Positions 2,178 through 42,977 of a DNA stretch of 64,000 nucleotides are shown here, piece by piece. Source of the DNA: Candidatus Binatia bacterium (GTDB taxonomy: Bacteria > Desulfobacterota > Binatia > HRBIN30); contig JBEKBJ010000002.1 in NCBI GenBank assembly GCA_050015455.1, forward strand, positions 1,091 through 65,090, given 5' to 3'. Position 1 is the stretch's first letter; each line of letters starts with the position of its first letter. A model generated the notes under the pieces. The model did no database searches, was not told the origin of the DNA, and was given only the letters and a program-made list of their open reading frames with translations. A program made the translations under genes and the position numbers.

Positions 2178-3581
2178 TCAAAGCACGTAGTCACTGCGCC
2201 TGCGCGCCCACCACGCTTCCATTTCAGCGCGCTTCTCCTCAAAGCCTTTGCGCCCGACGAGACCGCAGGTGAAGCGCTTGCTCTCCTCCACCCCTGGCTG
2301 ATCGAGCGGGTTAATCCGATACAGCCCGCCGGCGAAAACGACCGCGACTTCGAAGAGGTAGAATAACTGCCCGAGCGTAAAGAGGTTGATCTGCGGCAGG
2401 GTGATGGTGATCACCGGCCGTTGTTGTTTCAGCAGGGCCAGCTCGGTGGCTTGCTGTTCGAGGTTCAACAACTGCCCCAGACCGACACCGCCGAGATAGC
2501 CGATACTCTCGAGGTCGGCGTACGCCGACGGCACCGGCAGCTCCCGCCCGTGGTCTTCGACGCGCAGCATAATGACGATCTTGTCGGCGGGCCCTTCGGC
2601 GTACAACTGCAGCTGCGAGTGCTGATCGGTGGCGCCCACGGCGACAACCGGCGTCTGCCCGGTGTGCGCCGGCGTGCCGTCCACCGTGCGTGCCTTTCCT
2701 AAACTCTCGGCCCACAGCTGCGCGAACCAAGCGCCAAACGACTGCAAGCGGTCGCTGTACGGCATCATCACCACGATGTTCTGCCCGTGCTGCGTGTCGG
2801 CAAGGTACAGCAGCGTCGCCAACAGGTGGGCCGGATGATGCCAGATACCGGCGTCGCCGCAACGGCTGTCCATCCACGCCGCCCCGGCGACAAGCTCGTC
2901 TACCTTTAGTCCGGCGAAGGCAACAGCAAACAAACCGACCGAGGTCAAAACCGAAAATCGGCCGCCGACGCCGGCCGGCACCGCGAGATCGCGGAAGCCT
3001 TCGTCGTGGACCACCTGCCGCAACGTGCCGCTTTCGGCGTCGGTGCTGACGACGACACGCTTGGCGTAGTCCACCGCGCCCAATTGGCGCAGGAGCAGGT
3101 CGCGCACAATGAGGAACTGCGCCATGGTTTCCGCCGTCTCACCCGATTTGCTGATGACGTTGAAGGTGGTCCGTGCGAGATCGAGGTTATCGAGCAGCTG
3201 CCCGAAGCTCCACGGGTCGACGTTGTCGGCCACCGCGACGCGCGTGGTCGCGTCCCCGAGCGCCGCGATCAAGGTCTTGGCACCGAGCGCCGACCCGCCG
3301 ATCCCGAGGACCACGAGCGTGTCACTCTCGGCGCGCACGTCCGTCGCCAACGCCCTGATGCGCCTGAGTGCGTCCTTCTGGTACGGCAGCTCGTAGAAGG
3401 GCAGCGCGCCCGCAGCGCGCCGCTCTTTCAGTGATGCGGCGATCTCTGCGGCGCGGGTGGCCAGCATCTCGACCTCCTGGCGTGCCACGCCTGCCCCACC
3501 GACGGTATCGGCGATCATGCCGTTGACATCGAGCCGCACGCTCATCGCCTCACGGGCCGCACGGCGACGGTAGTCGGGCAT
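2178..3581 (-). CDS. pgi: glucose-6-phosphate isomerase
   Basis: 467 aa. SIS-domain motifs VLGIGGSALGAK and ISKSGETAET, and the C-terminal PGI signature. ATG at 3581; an alternative internal start at MSVRLD is possible. Confidence 0.9.
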   Translation of the reverse strand: MPDYRRRAAREAMSVRLDVNGMIADTVGGAGVARQEVEMLATRAAEIAASLKERRAAGALPFYELPYQKDALRRIRALATDVRAESDTLVVLGIGGSALGAKTLIAALGDATTRVAVADNVDPWSFGQLLDNLDLARTTFNVISKSGETAETMAQFLIVRDLLLRQLGAVDYAKRVVVSTDAESGTLRQVVHDEGFRDLAVPAGVGGRFSVLTSVGLFAVAFAGLKVDELVAGAAWMDSRCGDAGIWHHPAHLLATLLYLADTQHGQNIVVMMPYSDRLQSFGAWFAQLWAESLGKARTVDGTPAHTGQTPVVAVGATDQHSQLQLYAEGPADKIVIMLRVEDHGRELPVPSAYADLESIGYLGGVGLGQLLNLEQQATELALLKQQRPVITITLPQINLFTLGQLFYLFEVAVVFAGGLYRINPLDQPGVEESKRFTCGLVGRKGFEEKRAEMEAWWARRRSDYVL

Positions 3582-32614: not shown

Positions 32615-35600
32615 CTACGGCAGTGGGACGGTCCCCGCGCAGTAAATTTGGCCGTCGCTGGTCTGACCGATGAAGCTGATCATCGCGTTGGCCAGCGCGC
32701 CCTCGGCCGTGGCATCGAGACAGGACGGACAGATCGCCACCTTCTGCCCGTTCACCGTTGCCGTCTTGGCGAGCACCGCCGCTTCCGCCTTGTCGTACGC
32801 GGCGCGACAGGAGATCCGCGTGCCGGTTCCCTCGCACGCTCGGACATCAAATGTCTCTTTCTTGAGCGCCGCGTCAGCCTCCTTTTTTTGGCAGCTGGTG
32901 ATGCATCGCGCCAGTGTTCGAACATTTCTGGAGACCGTGTCTTCACACGCACCGGTGTTCTTGTCCGGCGGTACGAAGCCCGGGTTACCACTCGCGAAAC
33001 CGATCGTGCCCGCGCAGTAGATTTGGCCATCGAGTTGGTGCACGACGCTCGTCGCCGAGTCCGCCAAGCCGTTCTGCGCCGTGAGGCCCAGACAGGCCGG
33101 GCAGATCGGCACCCTCTTCTTGTTCACCGTTGTCGTCCGCAAGAGCACCGCCCATTGTGCCTCGTCGTACGCGGCGCGACACATTCCCTCGCACGCCATT
33201 TCGTCAAAGGATTGGTTTTTCAGCGCGTAGCCGGCCTCCTTCGTTTGGCAATTGGCCGTGCAGACTACGAGTTTTTTTATGTTCTGCGCTACCGTATCCT
33301 CGCACGTATCCGTACTGGAATTCGGGGGCACCATGGCCTCCGGCGTCGCCGTGGGTGTGGGCGTTGCCATCGGCGTCCCTGTTGGGGTGTTGGTCGGCGT
33401 CGCAGTTGGTGTTGCCGCTGGGGTGCTCGTCGGCTCGGCGCATACCCCGCCGGCACACGTTCCACTGCGGCATTGGGAGCCGGCGGTGCAGCTCGTTCCA
33501 TCGTTGCAGTCATTGGTCTGCCCGCAGCACGAGTTGCTGTCGCAGGCGCCGCCGGTGCATTGCGACGCGCTCGTGCAGCCCGACCCATCACCGCAGTTGG
33601 CGATGCAGGCTGCGGCGTTCGCCTCGAAGGCGCCGATGGAGCAGTTGATCGCGCCCGCACCGGGCCGGACGAAGCCGCGTTGGTCGAGATTGTCGACGGG
33701 CGCGGTGCCGGTGGTCGTCGAACATACGCTTTCGTTCCCATTGTTGATCGCTAGGCTTACTCCGGTGCACGAGGCAGGAGAACCCACGCCGGTACACAAA
33801 GCGATGGTTTGGGTCGGCCCACCGTTATCTGCCAAACCCGCCGGATCGAGCATCGGGTCGAACGCACCGATGGTTGTGCCACACGTCGTGCCGGGGAATT
33901 GCAGGTTGTGGCCGCCGTCAGTGATGCCGCCGCCACCGATGCCACTGTCGGCGCAGCCGCCCGCCAGGATGGTGTTGATGACGGTTGGCGGCGTGGTTCC
34001 CAGGTCGGTGGCGATGCCGCCGCCGCTATTGCCGGAGAAGGTGCTGTTGGTGATCAAGGTCGAGCCCTGGCTGAAGATGCCGCCGCCGGAGCCCGCGCCA
34101 TTGCCGGAGAAGGTGCTGTTGGTGACCGTCACCGTGCGCTGGTTGTAGATGGCGCCGCCGACGTAGACCGCGCTATTGCCGGAGAAGGTACTGTTGGTGA
34201 CCGTCAGCGTGCCCACGTTGAGGATGCCGCCGCCGCCGTTGCCGGTGCTAAGCGAGCTATTGCCTGAGAAAGTGCTGTTGGTGACCGTCACCGTGCCACC
34301 TCCGATGAGGATGCCGCCGCCGGAGCCCGCTGATCCGTTGGCGATCGTCAGGTTCTGGACCGTGAAGTTGGCGGCAGGCACGGAGAAGACGCCCACGCTG
34401 TTCCCGCCGCTGATCGTGATCAGACTCCCGCCGTCAATGGTGGTGTCGGTGCGAATGGTCTTGGTGTAGGTGACAGTAATCGTGGCAGCACCCCCGCAGT
34501 CGAAGGTCACGGTGCCGCCGCCGAGGAGGCAGGTGTCCAGCGCGAACTCGGTGCAGCTCACCCCCGTGCCGGTGCCCACGACGCACGCCAGGGCGCGCGT
34601 CGGTGTTGGCGTTGCGGTTTCGGTCGGGGTGTTGGTCGGCGTCCGGGTCGGTGTATTGGTCGGTGTGGCCGTCGGGGTGTTGGTTGCGGTTGGTGTCTGA
34701 GTCGGGGTCTTGGTCGACGCCTGGGTCGGTGTATTGGTCGGTGTGGGCGTCGGGGTGTTGGTCGCGGTTGGTGTCTGAGTCGGGGTGCTGGTCGACGTCT
34801 GAGTCGGCGTGCTGGTTGGCGTCACCGTCGGGGTGGTCGTCAGGGTCGCGGTGGGAGTCGCGGTTGCGGTTGGCGTCGCGGTTTCGGTCGGCGTCGGGAT
34901 CGGGGTGGCCGGGCTGAGCTCGGCCACGAAGGCGTTCGATCCGCCGTTGGCGGCAGCATTGTTGGTGCTCTGGAAGGCATTCAGGGTGGGGAAGTTGTTC
35001 GACCACGCAAAGCCCGTGACGTAGGCGTTGCCGGAGGAATCGACCGCGATGCCGTTGCCATAGTCCCAGAAGCTTCCGCCCAAGTAGGTCGAATAGAGCA
35101 GCGATGCCGCTCCCGACGCCGATGGGTTGAGCTTGGCCACGAAGGCTTCGATTTCGCCGTTGTAGCTCAAGCCGTTCAGGGTGGGGAAGTCGGGCGAGGC
35201 GGTAGATCCCGTGACGTAGGCGTTGCCGGAGGAATCGACCGCGATGCCGTGGCCAGAGTCGCCGTTATTGCCGCTGCCGCCGAGGTAGGTTGAATAGAGC
35301 AGCGACGCCGCTCCCGACGCTGACGGGTTGAGCTTCGCCACGAAGGCGGTACCAGCGTTACTATCGCCGGCGTCGGGGACGTTGTTGGTGCTTTGGAAGG
35401 CGTTCAGGGTGGGGAAGTTGGCCGAGGCCGTATTTCCTGTGACATAGGCGTTGCCGGAGGAATCGACGGCGATGCCGTAGCCATAGTCGCCACGAAAGGC
35501 CGGGCCAAAGCCTTGGAAGCCTTGGCCAATGTTGCCGCTGCCGCCGAGGTAGGTCGAATAGAGCAGTGACGCCGCTCCTGACGCTGCCGGGTTGAGCTTG

Positions 35601-37687
35601 GCCACGAAGGCGGTATACGCGTTATCGGGGCTGGCGTTGGCGGCGGCATTGTTGGTGCTCTGGTAGGCGCCCGCAGTGACGGGGAACGCAACGCACGTGC
35701 CGGTCCCGTTCCCGGTGCAGCAATAAGCAGGTGTGTCGGAGCCGGTACAACTGGAGTTGCCGATCGAGGTCGTCCATCCCGTGACGTAGGCGTTGCCGGA
35801 GGAATCGACCGCGATGCCGGTGCCAGAGTCGTAGACGCTGCCGCCGAGGTAGGTCGAATAGAGTAAGTCCGCCGCGCCTGTTCCCGCCGGGTTGAGCTTG
35901 GTCACGAAGGCGTTCTCGGTGGCATTAAGCGTGCTCTGGAAGGCGTTCAGGGTGGGGAAGTCGGCCGAGCCCGTATATCCTGTGACGTAGGCGTTGCCGG
36001 AGGAATCAACCGCGATGCCGTTGCCAGAGTCGTACACGCTGCCGCCGAGGTAGGTCGAATAGAGCAGTGATGCCGCTCCTGACGCCGACGGGTTGAGCTT
36101 GGCCACGAAGGCGTTAACAAGGCCGGCGTTGGTGCTCTGGAAGGCGCCCGCAGTGACAGGAAACGCCATGCACGTGCCGGTTCCCGCCCCAGCGCAGCAA
36201 GTCTGAGGTACGCCCGAGCCGGTACAACTGGAGTTGCCGATCGAGCTCGTAACTCCCGTGACGTAGGCGTTGCCGGAGGAATCGACCGCGATGCCGTAGC
36301 CAGAATCGCCGCCGCTCCCGCCGAGGTAAGTCGAATAGAGCAGCGATGCCGCTCCCGACGCCGACGGGTTCAGCTTGGCCACGAAGGCGTTACCAAGGCC
36401 GGCGTTGGTGCTCTGGAAGGCGTTCAGGGTGGGGAAGTTGGTCGACTCCGTATATCCTGTGACGTAGGCGTTGCCGGAGGAATCGACCGCAATGCCGGTG
36501 CCATAGTCGCCGTCGCAGTTATATTCACCACAGAAGACGCCGCTGCCGCCCAAGTAGGTCGAATAGAGCAGCACCGGATCGATCACAATCGGCTTGCTCC
36601 GGTCGTAACTCGCCAGCTTAAAGCCCGCCTCGTCCGCGCCCCGGATCACCCATCCGCCCGCGATCGTTTGCTCCTTGCCGCCTGTAGTCTCCTGATAAAT
36701 CTCCGGCGCGTGCTCGATGAGTTGGTTCTTGCCCGCGCTCACGACCAGATCGCCCCGCTTATTCAGCGCGAGCTTGCGGACGCCCTTGAAGCTGAGCCGG
36801 ATCGCTTTCGGATCGGCGCCCGGCGCAAGCCGGAAATCGTACTCAAGCCGGGCCTGCTCGCTGCCGTGGTAGATGAGATCGATTCCGGGATAGACCTCCT
36901 TGAGCTCGACCTTGGCGTAGTTGGGAACATCGGTGTGCCACTGCTTGGGGTCGTTGCCGATGAAATAGTTGGACTTGCCCACCATCCGCTCGAGGCCGCC
37001 GATTTGCGACGCGCGCGCCGCCCCCTTGAGCGCGATCCGCACCACCGCCGCCTCCGCCTCAGCAGCTTTTTTCCTGTCATTCCTGCGTGTGGCTGCCGCG
37101 CGAGAGCCTGTCCCTTCGACAAGCTCAGGGCGGGCTCTGAGGCCGCCGAAGGAAATCCCCGATGCGGGCCCCCTCGACTTCGGAGACTTCACTCGCGATG
37201 ACTGAAAAGAATCAGGGCGACCGGGGAAAAAAGAGTGTGCGCCTTCCGGCGCGGGCGACCGCATCGCAATCACCGCCTCGCCGGGCGTGATGAACAGCGT
37301 GTAACCCTGCCCGTGCGATAGGAACTTGACCCGCGGATCGCTCTGGCCGAGGTTCGGCTCGAAGCGCATCGGCAGCTTTACGAGCGATAGGTGCGGCGGA
37401 CGATTCGGCGCGGAGGGCGCGTGCGACCGTCTGCGTCGGCCCGCCGTTGTCCTGGAGCCCGGTGGGGTCGAGAACGGCTCTTCTCCCAGCTGCTGACCGC
37501 CTGGCTGCTGTGCACCGGGCGGCGCACGGTGACCGACACGCTGCGCTGTCAGTGTGCGGGACGGACAGGTTTCACTGCCAGTGCCCACGACACACGCCAG
37601 GGCGCGCGCGGGCAGAGTGAGACATGGCAGGAGCAGAGCCAGCCCTAAGCCGCTGCATCGCAGTTGACCGCCGAAACGTGTGCTCAT
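32615..37687 (-). CDS. giant secreted multidomain protein: signal peptide - SBBP beta-propeller repeats - Thr/Pro linker - CSLREA/Pmp-type beta-helix - Cys-rich knot - linker - 2x novel 8-Cys C-terminal module
   Basis: About 1690 aa from the ATG at 37687 (signal peptide [31 protein letters not shown]). About nine SBBP-type repeats ([34 protein letters not shown]). A beta-helix region starting SCTEFAL. A CX-rich segment [30 protein letters not shown].... The C-terminal ~700 nt is ~90% identical to the 3' end of 28257-32348. Confidence 0.85.
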
Positions 37688-38185
37688 CGGGCACCTCTTT
37701 TCCACCGATATCTCCCAGACAGGCCGCTGCCCGGCGTGTGTGGTTGGCAAATCGAGGCTCGCACGCTTGCCCCCGACGAGACCGTCGTATCCCGCGTGCA
37801 GGCCACCGGACGTCATCCGAGGCCGATCATGTTGACATACGGTCGCGGTGATTACACCCTACACCCTGTGGCGTCAACCAAAATCGTCACAGTGGCCGTA
37901 CAAATCACGCAAGAGATGACCAATGTCAGTGTGGACTCCGTAAACTTACGGAGTTTTGACCTCACAGACGGTCACCATCCTTCCCCCGTCCTTCCTCCCG
38001 AATCGCAATCACCGTCATCGGCGCAGCGGATCGGTGTCGCCAGAGCCGTCATCTCCGACTTTGAGGACGACGACTTCGAGGGCGACGCGCTCGGGCTCCT
38101 CCAATGGATCGCTGGCGCACTCGACAAGACCGTCGAGATCTGCGTAATGCCGCGGAAGACCAAGCGGCACGCCGCGTGAGCAGTC

Positions 38186-38253
38186 CACCGATCGTCTCTG
38201 CGGACCCGCGCAGTCGGAATCTACGGCTTTGTCAGCACTCGGCGATCAAACCG
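38186..38253. repeat. 68-nt dispersed direct repeat, copy A (overlaps the GH108 stop codon)
   Basis: caccgatcgtctctgcggacccgcgcagtcggaatctacggctttgtcagcactcggcgatcaaaccg. Second copy at 43914-43980. Confidence 0.75.
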
Positions 38254-38773
38254 CCACCGTATCCGTCCCAATGCCGGCCCGCACCGTCTGCACTCGGTTG
38301 AGCCAGCCCTTCAGGAACCGCGACTGGTCAGGCCGGGCCTCTACAATCTCTCGGTAGAACTGCGCCCGTTCGTTACAGAGCGCTTGGGCGAGTTGCGCCG
38401 GGTCGCGGGCGGCGACTGCTGCGAGAGTACGAGGTCCGATAATGCCGTCCACTGCCACCCTGACCGCCGCCTGGAGAAGACGCGCCGCGCGCGCCACGCC
38501 CACATTCACGCAGGAATCGAAGTGGACGGCATCGAGCGGCTCACGCAGGTCAGCACATTTTCCTGGGATCCAGTACTGGTCGTAGTAGATGCGCCGGACC
38601 TCATCGTCCGTGATGTTGGCCACCGATTGCGGCAGGGCATCGATCGACGCCCGAAAACGGTCGTACGTGGCTTGCGTGATCCCCTGGTTGGTGGCGCCGC
38701 CCCGGTCGGCCGGATCGTCGACGAATCCCCCCTCCAGATCGAGCGTAAGCGCCAAAGCCTTGTCGAAGCTCAT
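38246..38773 (-). CDS. GH108 N-acetylmuramidase with C-terminal peptidoglycan-binding (PG_binding_3) domain
   Basis: LTLDLEGGFVDDPADRGGATNQGITQATYD is the GH108 catalytic signature. 175 aa, the typical two-domain lysozyme. No signal peptide. Confidence 0.85.
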   Translation of the reverse strand: MSFDKALALTLDLEGGFVDDPADRGGATNQGITQATYDRFRASIDALPQSVANITDDEVRRIYYDQYWIPGKCADLREPLDAVHFDSCVNVGVARAARLLQAAVRVAVDGIIGPRTLAAVAARDPAQLAQALCNERAQFYREIVEARPDQSRFLKGWLNRVQTVRAGIGTDTVAV

Positions 38774-39141
38774 CGCTACCTGCGCCTGGGCTTATCGTGG
38801 TCTGCTCATGGAGCGCATGAAACACGGTACTGAGTATGTGGCGACACCCCAGCCACATGTTGGCAGGCTGTAGCATGGGAAGCTGGGGATCGGCAACAAG
38901 GGTTTCACTTTACCGTCTGCATCCGCGCCAACGCTGCCAAAGACACGAGGCACCGACTTTGCCCAACGATTCGGAAGGTCGGCCATGGGAGCCCGGCGTG
39001 AGGGCACGGCTCCACTATGCGCGCCTTTTGGGGCGGCCGGGCTGTGAGCCCGCCTTTCTCGGCAAAGCCCCCTGGATCGCAGGTTAACAACGCCCCGCCG
39101 TGGATTTTCGCTCGCAGAAGGGCTTGGCCAACCCTCCGCAA

Positions 39142-39380
39142 CGGCGGAGGCGGGGGTGAACGGCGTGGTCAGACCCGTCGCAACGAATGTATGCCTAAGA
39201 TTTCGCTGTCCGCGTCATTACTATGGCTGAGGCGGGGGGAAACAGCTTGGTCGGACGCGTTGCAACCAATGCGTGCCTAAGATTTACGCTGTGCGAAGCG
39301 TCCCGACGGCGGAGGCGGAGGTGAACGGCGCGGTCAGGCCCGTCGCAACGGATGCGTGCCTAAAATTCAGGCGTTCCAGG
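39142..39380. repeat. three tandem copies of a degenerate ~82-bp repeat in a 1.3-kb intergenic region
   Basis: Units begin cggcggaggcgg(g/a)ggtgaacggcg(t/c)ggtcag(a/g)cccgtcgcaacg(a/g)atg(t/c)(a/g)tgcctaa(g/a)att... at about 39142, 39226 and 39306, ~80% identical. Confidence 0.7.
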
Positions 39381-40090
39381 GCTCCACACTGAAAAAACTC
39401 GATCGGATACGGGCGCCGTACTACACCCTAGGTGTTGTGTACCATAGCCTGAGGTTGCCTTCTTCCGGCTACCCCAGGCCGCAAGCGCGGCGCGTGTTCG
39501 CCCTGGGTAGCCGCCGAAAAGACGCGGCAAGGGTCCGCGACCCAACCCAGGGCTATGTTGCGCAACGCCTTCGGCGTAGGGCTGTGTCTGTCGAAGCATT
39601 GTGATTGTTCAGCACACTGTGAAGCGGTCAGCAAGCAGTTCTCCGCTTTGATTGTTCAATCTTGTGAACTCTCCATGATGTCAACTTCACCAGCTTTTCG
39701 GGGGCCTTGCCCCACAAGAGCGGGCTGGGAGTAGCCCGGCGAAAGGCGCGGTGTTCTGAAGTCGGCGTGCCCTCACGTTGCGGCTCGATGGTTAATGTAG
39801 GCCACGTTTTGTGGGCAATTTCGCTGTGTTCAGCCTTCCGCACTCGTGGTGAAATGGTGGCGAACCATTTGTGAGTGGAAATCCGGCAGGTGACCGCTCC
39901 ACCGGTGTTGCCGCACATAGCAAGGGCAGGCTTCTATGGTGTATCCAGTGCCCAGCCGGTACTCACGTGGCACTAGTACGAAATAAACTTACAATGATGT
40001 ACAGTCGGCCAAAGATCGACGCGCCGTATGGCGCACAATGGTTTGGCAAGTGGTTTGCACAGCGACGCCCTCTCAGAAAGGAGAGGCGGT

Positions 40091-40813
40091 ATGTCTACAA
40101 TTGCGGTAGGCAAGGGTACAACCCGGCAACTCAATGCCGGCGTGGCAATTCTGGCCGCAGCGCGGACGGTGGACACAAGGCTGATCAAGGATCGGCTGGC
40201 GGCGTTCGATCGGGCGCAGCACGGCTACGTGCAGGCGCAGGCGAAGGTGCAGCAGGCCGAAGCGGAGGTGGAGAAGGCGCACGCGCAGTTCCTGACCGAG
40301 CAGCAGAGCGTGGTGGACACGCTGGCGCGGGCGCTGGTGGCCGACGGGCAGCCGCTGCGGGATCCGTTTGCGGCCTTTGGAAATCTGCACACGGGGGCGC
40401 TCATGCGTTTGGCGCCGGCGGATGCGGCCAAGGCGTTGCCGGAGCTGGTGGCGGCGATACGCCGCAGCAAGGCCTTGGGCAAAGGGACGCTGCAGGCCGT
40501 GCAGAGCGCGGAGAAGGTGACGCGCGGCATGGAGCCGGCGTTGGCGCGTTTGGAGACGCTGCGCACGGCGGCGCGCGACGCCCGCGCCACCCGTGACGCG
40601 GTGGCGCAGGCGTGGGAGCTGGCACTCGGCGCCCTCAAGCGCGGGGCACGCGCCGCGGCCGACGATGGCGCACCGAACTTGTACGCCACCCTGTTCGAGC
40701 GGCCAGCGCGCGCGTCCACGAAGGCTTCAAAACCAACCCCACAACCGTCACCGGAACCTCCCTCCCCACCGGTGACAGCTCCGGCGCCGGCGCCCGAACC
40801 GGCGACGTCGTAA
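40091..40813 (+). CDS. hypothetical coiled-coil protein with Pro-rich C-terminus
   Basis: ATG at 40091 preceded by a strong AAAGGAGAG Shine-Dalgarno. 240 aa. Ala/Arg/Gln-rich helical segments and a C-terminal PTPQPSPEPPSPPVTAPAPAPEP tail. No family recognised. Confidence 0.5.
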   Translation: MSTIAVGKGTTRQLNAGVAILAAARTVDTRLIKDRLAAFDRAQHGYVQAQAKVQQAEAEVEKAHAQFLTEQQSVVDTLARALVADGQPLRDPFAAFGNLHTGALMRLAPADAAKALPELVAAIRRSKALGKGTLQAVQSAEKVTRGMEPALARLETLRTAARDARATRDAVAQAWELALGALKRGARAAADDGAPNLYATLFERPARASTKASKPTPQPSPEPPSPPVTAPAPAPEPATS

Positions 40814-41021
40814 ACCAACGGCGGCACGGCTCGAGCCCCTGGGCCGTGCCGCCGGCAGCCCATTCGCACCGTAATCGGCTAATGAAATTGGCGGTGCTCT
40901 CCGCCTGTGTCAGGTTGGCGGCCAGGTTCTCGCGGCTGGCCTCGCCACGCAACGTGTAGAGCACCCCGAGGCTGTAGGCGAAGCCCAGCAGGATGAGCAG
41001 CAGGAATGACCCGAAGGCCAT
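40635..41021 (-). CDS. hypothetical small membrane protein (3' extent uncertain)
   Basis: ATG 60 nt downstream of the PQ-repeat gene stop. One TM helix (MAFGSFLLLILLGFAYSLGVLY). The C-terminal half is R/P-rich and overlaps the 3' end of the 40091 gene on the opposite strand, so one of the two is probably over-called. Confidence 0.3.
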   Translation of the reverse strand: MAFGSFLLLILLGFAYSLGVLYTLRGEASRENLAANLTQAESTANFISRLRCEWAAGGTAQGLEPCRRWFTTSPVRAPAPELSPVGREVPVTVVGLVLKPSWTRALAARTGWRTSSVRHRRPRRVPRA

Positions 41022-41083: not shown

Positions 41084-42841
41084 TCACATACTCTGCTGAA
41101 CCTCCGCCTCCGCCCTGTCAGCATCCTGCTGTTGCTGGTCGAGTTGAACCGTGGCGTCTGTGTCCGGCTGTGCCTGGCCTTCTTCTACCGGCCTTGGATC
41201 CGCAGGCGGACCGCTCACCATTCCATTCTTGCCTTGATTGTCCGCGAGCGTCTGAAGCCCCGCGTCAATCTTCTGCCGGAAGTCGTTGTGCATGTCCTGC
41301 AGATCCTGCAGGGGCAAGGCGAGTTGCGTTCCGGGCTGGCAGTCATTGGTCTGGCTGCTCGTGACCAGTACCTGGACGTTTTGATTCGCATCGGGTGTAT
41401 TCGCGATCCGCGTCAGAACGTCGCCGGAGGAGAGGGAACATGTCGTACCGTCAGCGGTTGGCTGGCTGAGTGTGTTCGAGACGATGAACGTCCGCACTTT
41501 GGGGTCGAGCGCTTCCGGTACCTGATCGTTGCTCGGTGCCGCTGCCGGCTGTGGGGGGTTGGCAGCGGCTTGTTCCGCTGCAAGCTGCACTTTCACCTCG
41601 TCGGCAATCGCCTGCTTCGTTTCCGGCGTAAGTGCGGCGCCATTGGCGTTCGTGTCCTTCGACACGTAGACCGCAGGAGCGGCCGCTTCCGCCTGGGCGT
41701 TGGCCGGTGCCTGAGCTTCGTAGCCGGCCCGCAGAGTTTCGGCGAGCAGGAAGTCCGTCAGCCAGAGCGCCGGGTACGGATACACGGGGTACGGCCTGAA
41801 GTAATATCCATAGTAGCCGTACCAAGGATCTGCGGCCCAACCCCATCGCCACGAGACCGGCACTGCCCACGGATTGTAGGCCCAGCCATAAAATGCGGGT
41901 GCGTAGTAGTAGGGCGGCACATAACCGTAGTAGGCGAGACCGCGGTAGTGATAGCCGCGATAGACAACCGCATAGGGGTGACCGCCGTACACGTACGTCC
42001 GCCTCATGTAGGGCCGTCCGCCATGCTCGAACGGACGTTCCACGAAGCCGCGGTGTGCTCCCACGACGACCACTCGGCCGCCGCCGCTGAGATGGGTCTC
42101 AACGATCCGGCCACCACGTGGGCCATGATTGATCACCATACCGCCGGAATGAATCGATCTCACACCGCCGTCGGCACCGAACCTCGCTTCTGCACCGCCG
42201 CGCGTCCTGAGGCTCGTCAGCTGGCCCTTGTTTCCCGTGTGGAATTCGCTGCCATTCGGGGCTTTGTAGATGGTACCACCCCTGTTGTCGCGCTTCGCTA
42301 TCGCGCCGTGCGGCGGAGTGAAAGGCTTGACCTGCCGTTGTTGGGGTGCGGCATGCTGTGGTTGCGGCGCGGCATGTTGTTGTGGCGCGGCTTGCCGTCG
42401 TTCGGGTGCGGCCTGGCGTTGTTGCGGTGCGGCCTGCCCTTTTTGCGGCGCGGCCTGCCGTTGTTGCGGCGCGGCATGCTGTGGTTGCGGTGCGGCGTGC
42501 TGCGGTTGCGGCGCGGCATGCTGTGGTTGCGGCGCCGCCTGCCGTCGTTCGGGCGCGGCCTGCCGTTGTTGCGGCGCGGCATGCTGTGGTTGCGGCGCGG
42601 CGTGCTGTGGTTGCGGCGCGGCGTGCTGTGGTTGCGGCGCCGCCTGCCGTCGTTCGGGCGCGGCCTGCCGTCGTTCGGGCGCGGCCTGCCCTTTTTGCGG
42701 CGCGGCGTGCTGCGGTTGCGGCTTCTTCTCCTTCTCCTTCTCATTGTTCTGAGCCCAGGCCGATCCTGAAACGACCAGCAAGGCCAGCACAAATGCAAGC
42801 CAATTCCTGGCGGTCTTATGCCCTGTTTGGTGGTATCTCAT
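41084..42841 (-). CDS. secreted low-complexity protein with ~20 PQ-rich heptad repeats and a Gly/Tyr/Trp-rich region
   Basis: ATG at 42841 (MRYHQTGHKTARNWLAFVLALLVVSGSAWA signal peptide). Repeats PQPQHAA / PERRQAA / PQQRQAA encoded by 21-nt tandem repeats. A G/R-rich stretch. An aromatic patch (YYGYVPPYYYAPAFYGWAYNPW). An acidic Q/A-rich tail. Confidence 0.6.
   Translation of the reverse strand: MRYHQTGHKTARNWLAFVLALLVVSGSAWAQNNEKEKEKKPQPQHAAPQKGQAAPERRQAAPERRQAAPQPQHAAPQPQHAAPQPQHAAPQQRQAAPERRQAAPQPQHAAPQPQHAAPQPQHAAPQQRQAAPQKGQAAPQQRQAAPERRQAAPQQHAAPQPQHAAPQQRQVKPFTPPHGAIAKRDNRGGTIYKAPNGSEFHTGNKGQLTSLRTRGGAEARFGADGGVRSIHSGGMVINHGPRGGRIVETHLSGGGRVVVVGAHRGFVERPFEHGGRPYMRRTYVYGGHPYAVVYRGYHYRGLAYYGYVPPYYYAPAFYGWAYNPWAVPVSWRWGWAADPWYGYYGYYFRPYPVYPYPALWLTDFLLAETLRAGYEAQAPANAQAEAAAPAVYVSKDTNANGAALTPETKQAIADEVKVQLAAEQAAANPPQPAAAPSNDQVPEALDPKVRTFIVSNTLSQPTADGTTCSLSSGDVLTRIANTPDANQNVQVLVTSSQTNDCQPGTQLALPLQDLQDMHNDFRQKIDAGLQTLADNQGKNGMVSGPPADPRPVEEGQAQPDTDATVQLDQQQQDADRAEAEVQQSM
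42330..42730. repeat. 21-nt tandem repeat array (~20 units) inside the CDS
   Basis: Units such as gttgcggcgcggcatgctgtg / gttgcggcgcggcctgccgtc repeat head-to-tail. Confidence 0.8.
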
Positions 42842-42977
42842 TTGATCCTCGCTTTCTGCCTGGTGCGCAACAATTGGTTGGAAAACGCTGAAGCATTGGA
42901 GCCCGGACGTGCTGTTGGTGCCCAAGTCCTTTCCTCAGGCAGTCCATCCATGGCTCTTGTCTCATAGCGTAACGCGA

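Follow-up and report, generated by a model that had tools for sequence, protein, structure and literature searches.

A tandem repeat array upstream of a conserved sigma-54-type promoter in Candidatus Binatia

In Candidatus Binatia, a tandem array of direct repeats, a dyad, a -24/-12 promoter, a ribosome-binding site and the gene p240 form a module of ca. 1.8 kb which recurs in other genomes where its neighbours differ. We rate the array as an unusual type of region upstream of a sigma-54 promoter, being built from repeats. It is most likely a regulatory DNA element and neither a small RNA nor a CRISPR nor a dead gene. More specifically, and with a probability of roughly 0.4, we propose that the repeats may be phased protein-binding sites that would constitute the enhancer region of the sigma-54 promoter driving p240.

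Results

The gap considered here (38774-40090) is part of a 64-kb stretch of DNA, referred to as the window, and is located between a GH108/PG_binding_3 muramidase gene on the minus strand (38246-38773) and p240, which starts at 40091 on the plus strand. A previous sequence-only reading of the window had put the start of the GH108 gene at 38773 and had described the gap as free of credible open reading frames. Both points could be confirmed. The GH108 gene was found at 38246-38773, gene callers placed no gene within the gap in 18 loci from public contigs, ten open reading frames of 55 to 96 residues in the gap had no Pfam matches below E = 0.02 and the repeat period of 83 is in agreement with these results. 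No tRNA or tmRNA genes were found. The gap is non-coding. Its sequence was 100% identical to that of 15 loci spanning it and of 3 partial loci. The contig of the window recurs in many public metagenome samples which we take to come from peat bog; members of the uncultured phylum Binatia are abundant in both peat and soil. Overall, the gap is a mosaic of distinct parts, given below together with the adjoining gene (L numbers denote the loci used for comparison).

38774-39044, no strand: spacer on the GH108 side, unlike every related locus (BLAST against all fetched loci returns only the spacer itself)
39030-39062, plus: GC-rich hairpin followed by TTTCTC, fold z-score -0.37, no better than shuffled sequence
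39045-39141, plus: array leader, resembling a degenerate unit 0 and containing GCTTGGCCAACCC
39142-39224, plus: repeat unit 1, 83 nt, nhmmer E = 2.8e-22
39225-39306, plus: repeat unit 2, 82 nt, nhmmer E = 7e-20, the most diverged copy
39307-39415, plus: repeat unit 3, continuing as a conserved trailer (GTGCCTAAAATTCAGGCGTTCC...), nhmmer E = 4.1e-20
39415-39585, no strand: nested palindrome, REP/MITE-like, fold z-score -4.2
39586-39934, no strand: unique spacer of lower G+C content (54-55%), absent from L019
39935-40043, plus: conserved block adjoining the promoter, 80% identical to L019
40044-40059, plus: TGGCAAGTGGTTTGCA, a promoter of the sigma-54 type (GG, 40045-46; GC, 40057-58)
40077-40086, plus: Shine-Dalgarno site AAAGGAGAGG, with AGAAAGGAG conserved in alignment A5
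40091-40813, plus: p240 gene, encoding 240 residues with a coiled-coil hairpin and a disordered proline-rich tail

The promoter of the divergent GH108 gene presumably lies within 38774-39044.

Three tandem units of ca. 82 bp had been described before and were recovered by both repeat analyses. Tandem Repeats Finder reported 39141-39367 with a period of 83, 2.8 copies, 75% matches and zero indels, while a repeat search returned three 83-nt copies at 39119, 39201 and 39284, the first of which (39119-39201) overlaps the leader and was counted as a 66% copy. For the previously proposed core motif, three matches were counted in the 64-kb window, compared with 0 in 100 shuffles. The array period of 83 is not a multiple of 3; all other strong tandem repeats in the window have periods divisible by 3 and are located in coding sequence. 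The units abut without unique spacers and are conserved over their full 83 nt, which upholds the earlier statement that the array is not a CRISPR. Short motifs are kept in the units (GCKTGGTC, TGCCTAAAAT and GCTGGTCCGAGCC), base pairing is not, and units of the window clade show no clear dyad symmetry. Taking 10.4 bp per helical turn, a spacing of 41.5 or 83 bp corresponds to 4 or 8 turns, and the distance between the array and the -24 element is 655 bp in the window. Outside the array, no further matches to the unit model were found in the window below E = 0.5. The leader is 75-79% identical to L019 (from 4968) and L027 (from 2258), and the trailer is likewise common to L019 (5440-5480) and L027 (2550-2612).

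The units were also considered as promoters and rejected. As sigma-54 pseudo-promoters, window-clade units have a GG-to-GC spacing that is one base too long, as read from the sequence; as sigma-70 promoters, their spacing is wrong and the promoter scan was empty. Separately, a 21/105-nt coding tandem repeat was observed at 42331-42722 within the open reading frame 41084-42925 (minus strand), which encodes a proline- and glutamine-rich protein of 613 residues. Gene coordinates of L010 and L009 differ by 105 nt at this repeat, the contigs being otherwise near-identical, which suggests copy-number polymorphism between strains or assemblies.

Two further elements of the gap had been pointed out in the sequence-only reading. 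The hairpin with its TTTCTC run, then placed at ~39025-39062, is indeed present; its significance did not stand, given the z-score of -0.37 and its loss in L019, where the sequence TGAGCCC..TTTTCTCGG is retained. It was not called in a terminator scan and is not credible as a terminator. The inverted repeat at ~39467-39512 was found at 39466-39513 and turned out to be the inner hairpin of the larger nested palindrome 39415-39585, whose outer arms are 39421-39457 and 39543-39579. The palindrome arm (CAACCCAGGGCTATGTTGCGCAACGCCTTCGGCGTAG) occurs twice in L034 in opposite orientations (2014-2051 and 2349-2384) and half of the nested palindrome is present in L019 (5721-5799); among the fetched loci, copies were seen in L034 and L019 only. 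The nested palindrome is a separate small repeat element, distinct from the array. The earlier proposal of a decayed element applies to this part of the gap only, and no pseudogene was found. A second small palindromic element (...CCCCTTCAGGGCTGAAC...CCCAGGGCGTTGCCCTGGG...) was observed in L035 (3260-3370) and L039 (3500-3610), where it sits between array and promoter in two unrelated p240 loci.

Ten members of the p240 family were compared with respect to their genomic neighbourhoods. Using a lag scan, which measures self-similarity over 1.3 kb upstream of each gene relative to the maxima of shuffled sequences, the top lag was 41/42, 82-84 or a multiple of 42 in nine of the ten loci, at protein identities from 88% down to 38% (L021 had a top lag of 126). 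The lag was clearly above shuffled maxima in eight loci and marginal in L023 (38%), while L020 has kept the promoter and lacks the array. The closest relative shown here, L019 (88% protein identity), has flanking genes unlike those of the window on both sides; the stretch shared by the two extends from window position 39045 to just beyond the p240 stop codon, and the flanks are unrelated. Its array has 4.6 copies of 83 nt plus truncated 42-nt units and is much more uniform than that of the window. L030 (71%) carries an 83-nt array of 2.6 copies, and the diverged arrays of L021 (68%) and L035 (69%) show CTTGGTC motifs every 82-83 nt. L035 was found in the same samples as the window and is therefore probably a paralogue in the same organism. 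Units detected with a model built from three arrays were located solely upstream of p240 and on the strand of the gene in L021, L030 and L035. In more distant relatives, the repeat sequence differs from that of the window, as in L025 (48%; 41 nt x 4.9) and L039 (52%; period 42/84 nt), while L041 (52%) has about six copies of 42 nt, each with a CGCGCA-N3-TGCGCG dyad as judged from its sequence. Among p240 relatives, the period is thus kept where the repeat sequence has changed. Repeat sequence turnover is fast between paralogues, copy numbers range from 2.4 to 4.6 among loci, and in eight loci the distance from the end of the array to the downstream -24 element is 100-655 bp. Apart from promoter, dyad and ribosome-binding site, upstream DNA could not be aligned among relatives.

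At least three distant loci were obtained from a protein-based scan of genome contigs. A metagenome pattern scan returned four stretches, two of which were chance matches in one coding sequence (on two contigs) and two of which represented one orphan array, again on two contigs. This orphan array (L027) lies on a contig other than that of the window, in the same sample, and combines leader, units and trailer in an unrelated context; neither p240 nor a sigma-54 site was found within 4.2 kb. A dispersed-repeat check counted one array copy in the 64-kb window and one orphan copy elsewhere, and neither p240 nor the repeat unit was found in viral contigs. In L034 (705-1491), with a p240 that is 90% identical, a deletion corresponding to window 38480-40244 leaves a C-terminal GH108 fragment joined without interruption to a p240 that lacks its 5' part. 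This lineage can therefore do without the entire gap and without the starts of both genes.

Two assembly-related observations were made at other loci. All contigs shown for the p240 paralogue P0014 (L037 1-105, L038 2-91) break ca. 50 nt upstream of the gene, in what we take to be the 3'-terminal part of a gene for an IS630-like transposase. Since the contigs break there, an array of P0014 would be displaced or unassemblable. In L039, a 303-residue MNT-HEPN open reading frame call (2376-3287) apparently continues into the 42/84-nt array (3087-3279). As the array happens to be stop-free, this is read as a run-on, and the final ca. 70 residues are probably not real protein.

The promoter was analysed by aligning 200 nt before the start codon from six loci. 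All six of these close loci retain TGGCA-N6-TTGCA at 42-50 nt ahead of the ATG, with AGAAAGGAG downstream of it. The window site TGGCAAGTGGTTTGCA matches the sigma-54 consensus TGGCAC-N5-TTGCW at 10 of 11 positions with correct GG-N10-GC spacing, and its specified bases are identical across the six loci. Sites scoring 10/11 have a background of 0.005 per 300 nt in the window, where TGGCAAGTGGTTTGCA is the sole exact TGGCA-N6-TTGC[A/T] on both strands; three more distant p240 loci have 9/11 sites. One other 10/11 match to the consensus, TGGCACCGGCATTGCG, was observed at window position 36503 (minus strand) within a giant SBBP/beta-helix open reading frame (32615-37816) and may be a chance match or an internal promoter.

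The conserved block in front of the promoter (39935-40043) holds CACGTGGCAC at 39964-39973 and the window dyad, and is overlapped by a weak sigma-70-like match at 39967-39995. Proximal dyads are located ca. 69-105 nt upstream of the -24 element in L019, L021, L020 and L025.

Window, 39975-40003: AGTACG-N17-TGTACA, as it appears in the sequence
L019: TGTACA-N17-TGTACA
L021: TGACAT-N17-ATGTCA
L025: TGTACA-N17-TGTACA and TGTACA-N5-TGTACA
L020: TGTCAC-N19-GTGACA

This block is the best-placed candidate activator site. No gene for an enhancer-binding protein, identified by a GAFTGA or Walker A signature, was present in the window or in any of the fetched p240 loci, and no IHF consensus was found between array and promoter.

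p240 could not be assigned to a family in Pfam, NCBIfam or PADLOC, and its matches to PHROG were weak and of chance strength. Its 115 homologues come, where sources are named, mostly from Candidatus Binatia; three of them (P0009, P0011 and P0014) carry locus tags from one Candidatus Binatia genome, and the family is present in several copies in Binatia genomes. In a confident AlphaFold model (pLDDT 86.5), the protein forms a long coiled-coil hairpin of antiparallel arrangement and has a proline-rich tail that is disordered. A Foldseek search against the PDB returned generic coiled coils only, all with E > 0.2, and no sequence similarity between p240 and PspA was found. The gene stands as a single gene next to a convergent neighbour. 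In six loci (L020, L030, L033, L034, L035 and L039), we observed ParDE, HigB and DUF433/DUF5615 toxin-antitoxin pairs as well as AbiTii, HNH, Y1_Tnp, FRG, DUF4238 and MNT-HEPN genes in the flanks of p240. These neighbourhoods look like variable islands of defence and mobile-element genes.

Small RNA(s) had been suggested in the sequence-only reading as one content of the gap, together with an Rfam scan and a covariation analysis of the unit across relatives. Neither analysis favours an RNA. Rfam gave zero matches at gathering score in the 64-kb window, and only chance-level matches (E ~4-9) when 38000-41000 was searched up to E <= 10. RNAalifold predicted 0 pairs for 15 units from 6 arrays on both strands, and single units folded with z-scores of -1.6 to +0.9 relative to shuffles on both strands. 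A hairpin around the CCUAAAAUC loop seemed to covary by eye (GCAU/AUGC vs GCGU/ACGC) and was rejected, being 77% paired compared with 75.8% in shuffles. Two further helices proposed by hand were no better than shuffles, leaving all three without covariation. In four loci scanned, no sigma-70-like promoter before the array and no terminator after it were found.

Discussion

Among the contents suggested for the gap by the sequence-only reading, an array of regulator binding sites fits best, based on the conserved sigma-54 promoter and the conserved period. The accompanying idea that it controls a secreted-protein operon has to be dropped since p240 is a single gene with a convergent neighbour and secretion of its product has nothing behind it. 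Bacterial promoters driven by true enhancers are those of the sigma-54 class. Sigma-54 polymerase needs an ATPase activator, and bacterial enhancer-binding proteins bind upstream sequences and make contact via DNA looping (PMC7057263). Applied to p240, sigma-54 RNA polymerase would wait at 40044-40059 as a closed complex. An ATP-dependent enhancer-binding activator, likely encoded elsewhere in the genome, would bind upstream and reach the promoter through DNA looping. Further sites, all facing the same side of the helix at intervals of 4 or 8 turns, could then be offered by the repeats. Cooperative assembly on these sites, be it of the activator or of an accessory or silencing protein, could thereby tune output. 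As looping tolerates distance, this would explain why insertions of 250 to 650 bp between array and promoter are tolerated.

Several weak points count against the enhancer reading. L020 has no array, the array of L027 has no gene, window-clade units have no clear dyads and the distance of 655 bp is long. The missing activator gene in the loci, the missing IHF consensus and the fast turnover of the repeats also speak against it. Further, the dyad between array and promoter is better placed, and therefore the array may not be the primary activator site.

Alternatively, the array could be a selectively neutral minisatellite, renewed by slippage and unequal crossing-over and passively inherited with the upstream region of p240. 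Copy numbers between 2.4 and 4.6, the truncated 42-nt units of L019 and the homogeneity of its array relative to that of the window, a pattern expected of concerted evolution, would all be accounted for, as would the arrayless L020, the orphan array of L027 and the deletion of the whole gap in L034. We nevertheless consider this somewhat unlikely, because period and orientation last at nine of ten loci down to 38-48% protein identity, in upstream DNA that is otherwise unalignable save for promoter, dyad and ribosome-binding site, and because paralogues keep identical short motifs. Bacterial genomes also tend toward the deletion of useless DNA. Transcription of the array into a repeat RNA, acting as a protein-sequestering sponge or as a processed antitoxin-like RNA that partners p240 in a type III-like manner, is in our view unlikely. 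It would fit the constant orientation of the array with respect to p240, the fact that the two move together and the toxin-antitoxin pairs, AbiTii, HNH, MNT-HEPN and transposase genes nearby; type III antitoxin repeats have a size range that includes 41-42 nt, the length of the half-unit. The RNA tests are difficult to reconcile with it, however. Rfam stayed empty even at E <= 10, RNAalifold gave zero pairs, the three helices and single units were no better than shuffles and the four scanned loci have neither a sigma-70 promoter before the arrays nor a terminator after them. In addition, the conserved sigma-54 promoter intervenes between array and p240. If p240 is transcribed mainly from this site, its mRNA would not include the array, which lies upstream. 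For p240 itself, an all-helical coiled-coil protein, neither ToxN nor PADLOC nor Pfam gave a match.

It appears improbable that the array is a mobile or selfish intergenic repeat of modular build, similar to pneumococcal BOX elements (A-Bn-C) or a MITE. The layout of leader, variable tandem units and trailer resembles such elements, L027 has exactly this segment alone in an unrelated context and small palindromic elements populate p240 upstream regions. A dispersing repeat is hard to recognize, on the other hand, in a sequence with one copy in the 64-kb window, one extra genuine locus in the metagenome scan and zero in viral contigs, which is always upstream of p240 except in L027 and in which terminal inverted repeats were not noticed on inspection. 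Least probable by far are a CRISPR array and the remains of a protein gene, to which only the large size of the gap would point: a period of 83 is not divisible by 3, Pfam is empty and callers place no gene, while a CRISPR is contradicted by units that abut without unique spacers and are conserved in their entirety.

Going beyond phased binding sites at a sigma-54 promoter, the ca. 1.8-kb module could be a self-contained unit that duplicates within Binatia and lands in islands of defence and mobile-element genes, with the array being either a new type of enhancer or the template of a repeat RNA. This extended scenario is speculative and rather unlikely. In the former case, the 41.5-bp-phased array would be a long tandem landing pad where an activator or silencer polymerises; in the latter, the repeat RNA would act with the coiled-coil p240. 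Either version, if true, makes the module a previously unrecognised sigma-54-controlled stress or defence unit. A literature search did not find a description of the array, which also has no Rfam family match.

If the enhancer reading is correct, long direct repeats found family-wide, whose helical spacing is kept while their sequence drifts, would represent an unusual enhancer design and a clean system in which to study the effects of phasing and copy number on transcriptional output. The present results also offer an initial way into the regulation of this uncharacterised coiled-coil family, which has multiple copies in Binatia. Were the array neutral, its value would be smaller, namely as a documented minisatellite that persists in a bacterial regulatory region.

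The array shares features with several known systems. With pneumococcal BOX, REP and MITE elements it has in common leader, variable tandem units and trailer as well as an orphan copy (L027), but it is not dispersed at high copy number and is tied to one gene family; the REP/MITE-like piece proper of the gap is the separate palindrome 39415-39585. Type III antitoxin repeats (ToxI) are likewise non-coding tandem repeats with a similar half-unit, located upstream of a gene in surroundings rich in defence and toxin-antitoxin genes. In those systems, however, a terminator takes the place that is held here by a promoter, an RNA structure signal was not found in our array and p240 is a coiled coil rather than a ToxN-like RNase as in the type III toxins ToxN, AbiQ, CptN and TenpN. 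Plasmid arrays such as iterons and sopC of the F plasmid, the latter with twelve 43-bp repeats, also consist of ca. 42-bp tandem direct repeats which would provide sites every four helical turns. Unlike these, the array described here is chromosomal, exists in several paralogous copies, has no adjacent partition or replication genes and is paired with a sigma-54 promoter and p240. Upstream activating sequences of sigma-54 promoters, for example those of NtrC at glnAp2 and PspF at pspA, resemble the proposed arrangement in being located upstream of a -24/-12 promoter, in their tolerance to distance and in having sites on one helix face; that PspA, like p240, is a coiled-coil product is an analogy only. 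Known sigma-54 enhancers are built from short dyads, two or three in number, that lie no more than ~100-150 bp away from the promoter, whereas the p240 loci combine a separate proximal dyad with a long direct-repeat array of 42/83-bp units located 100-655 bp upstream.
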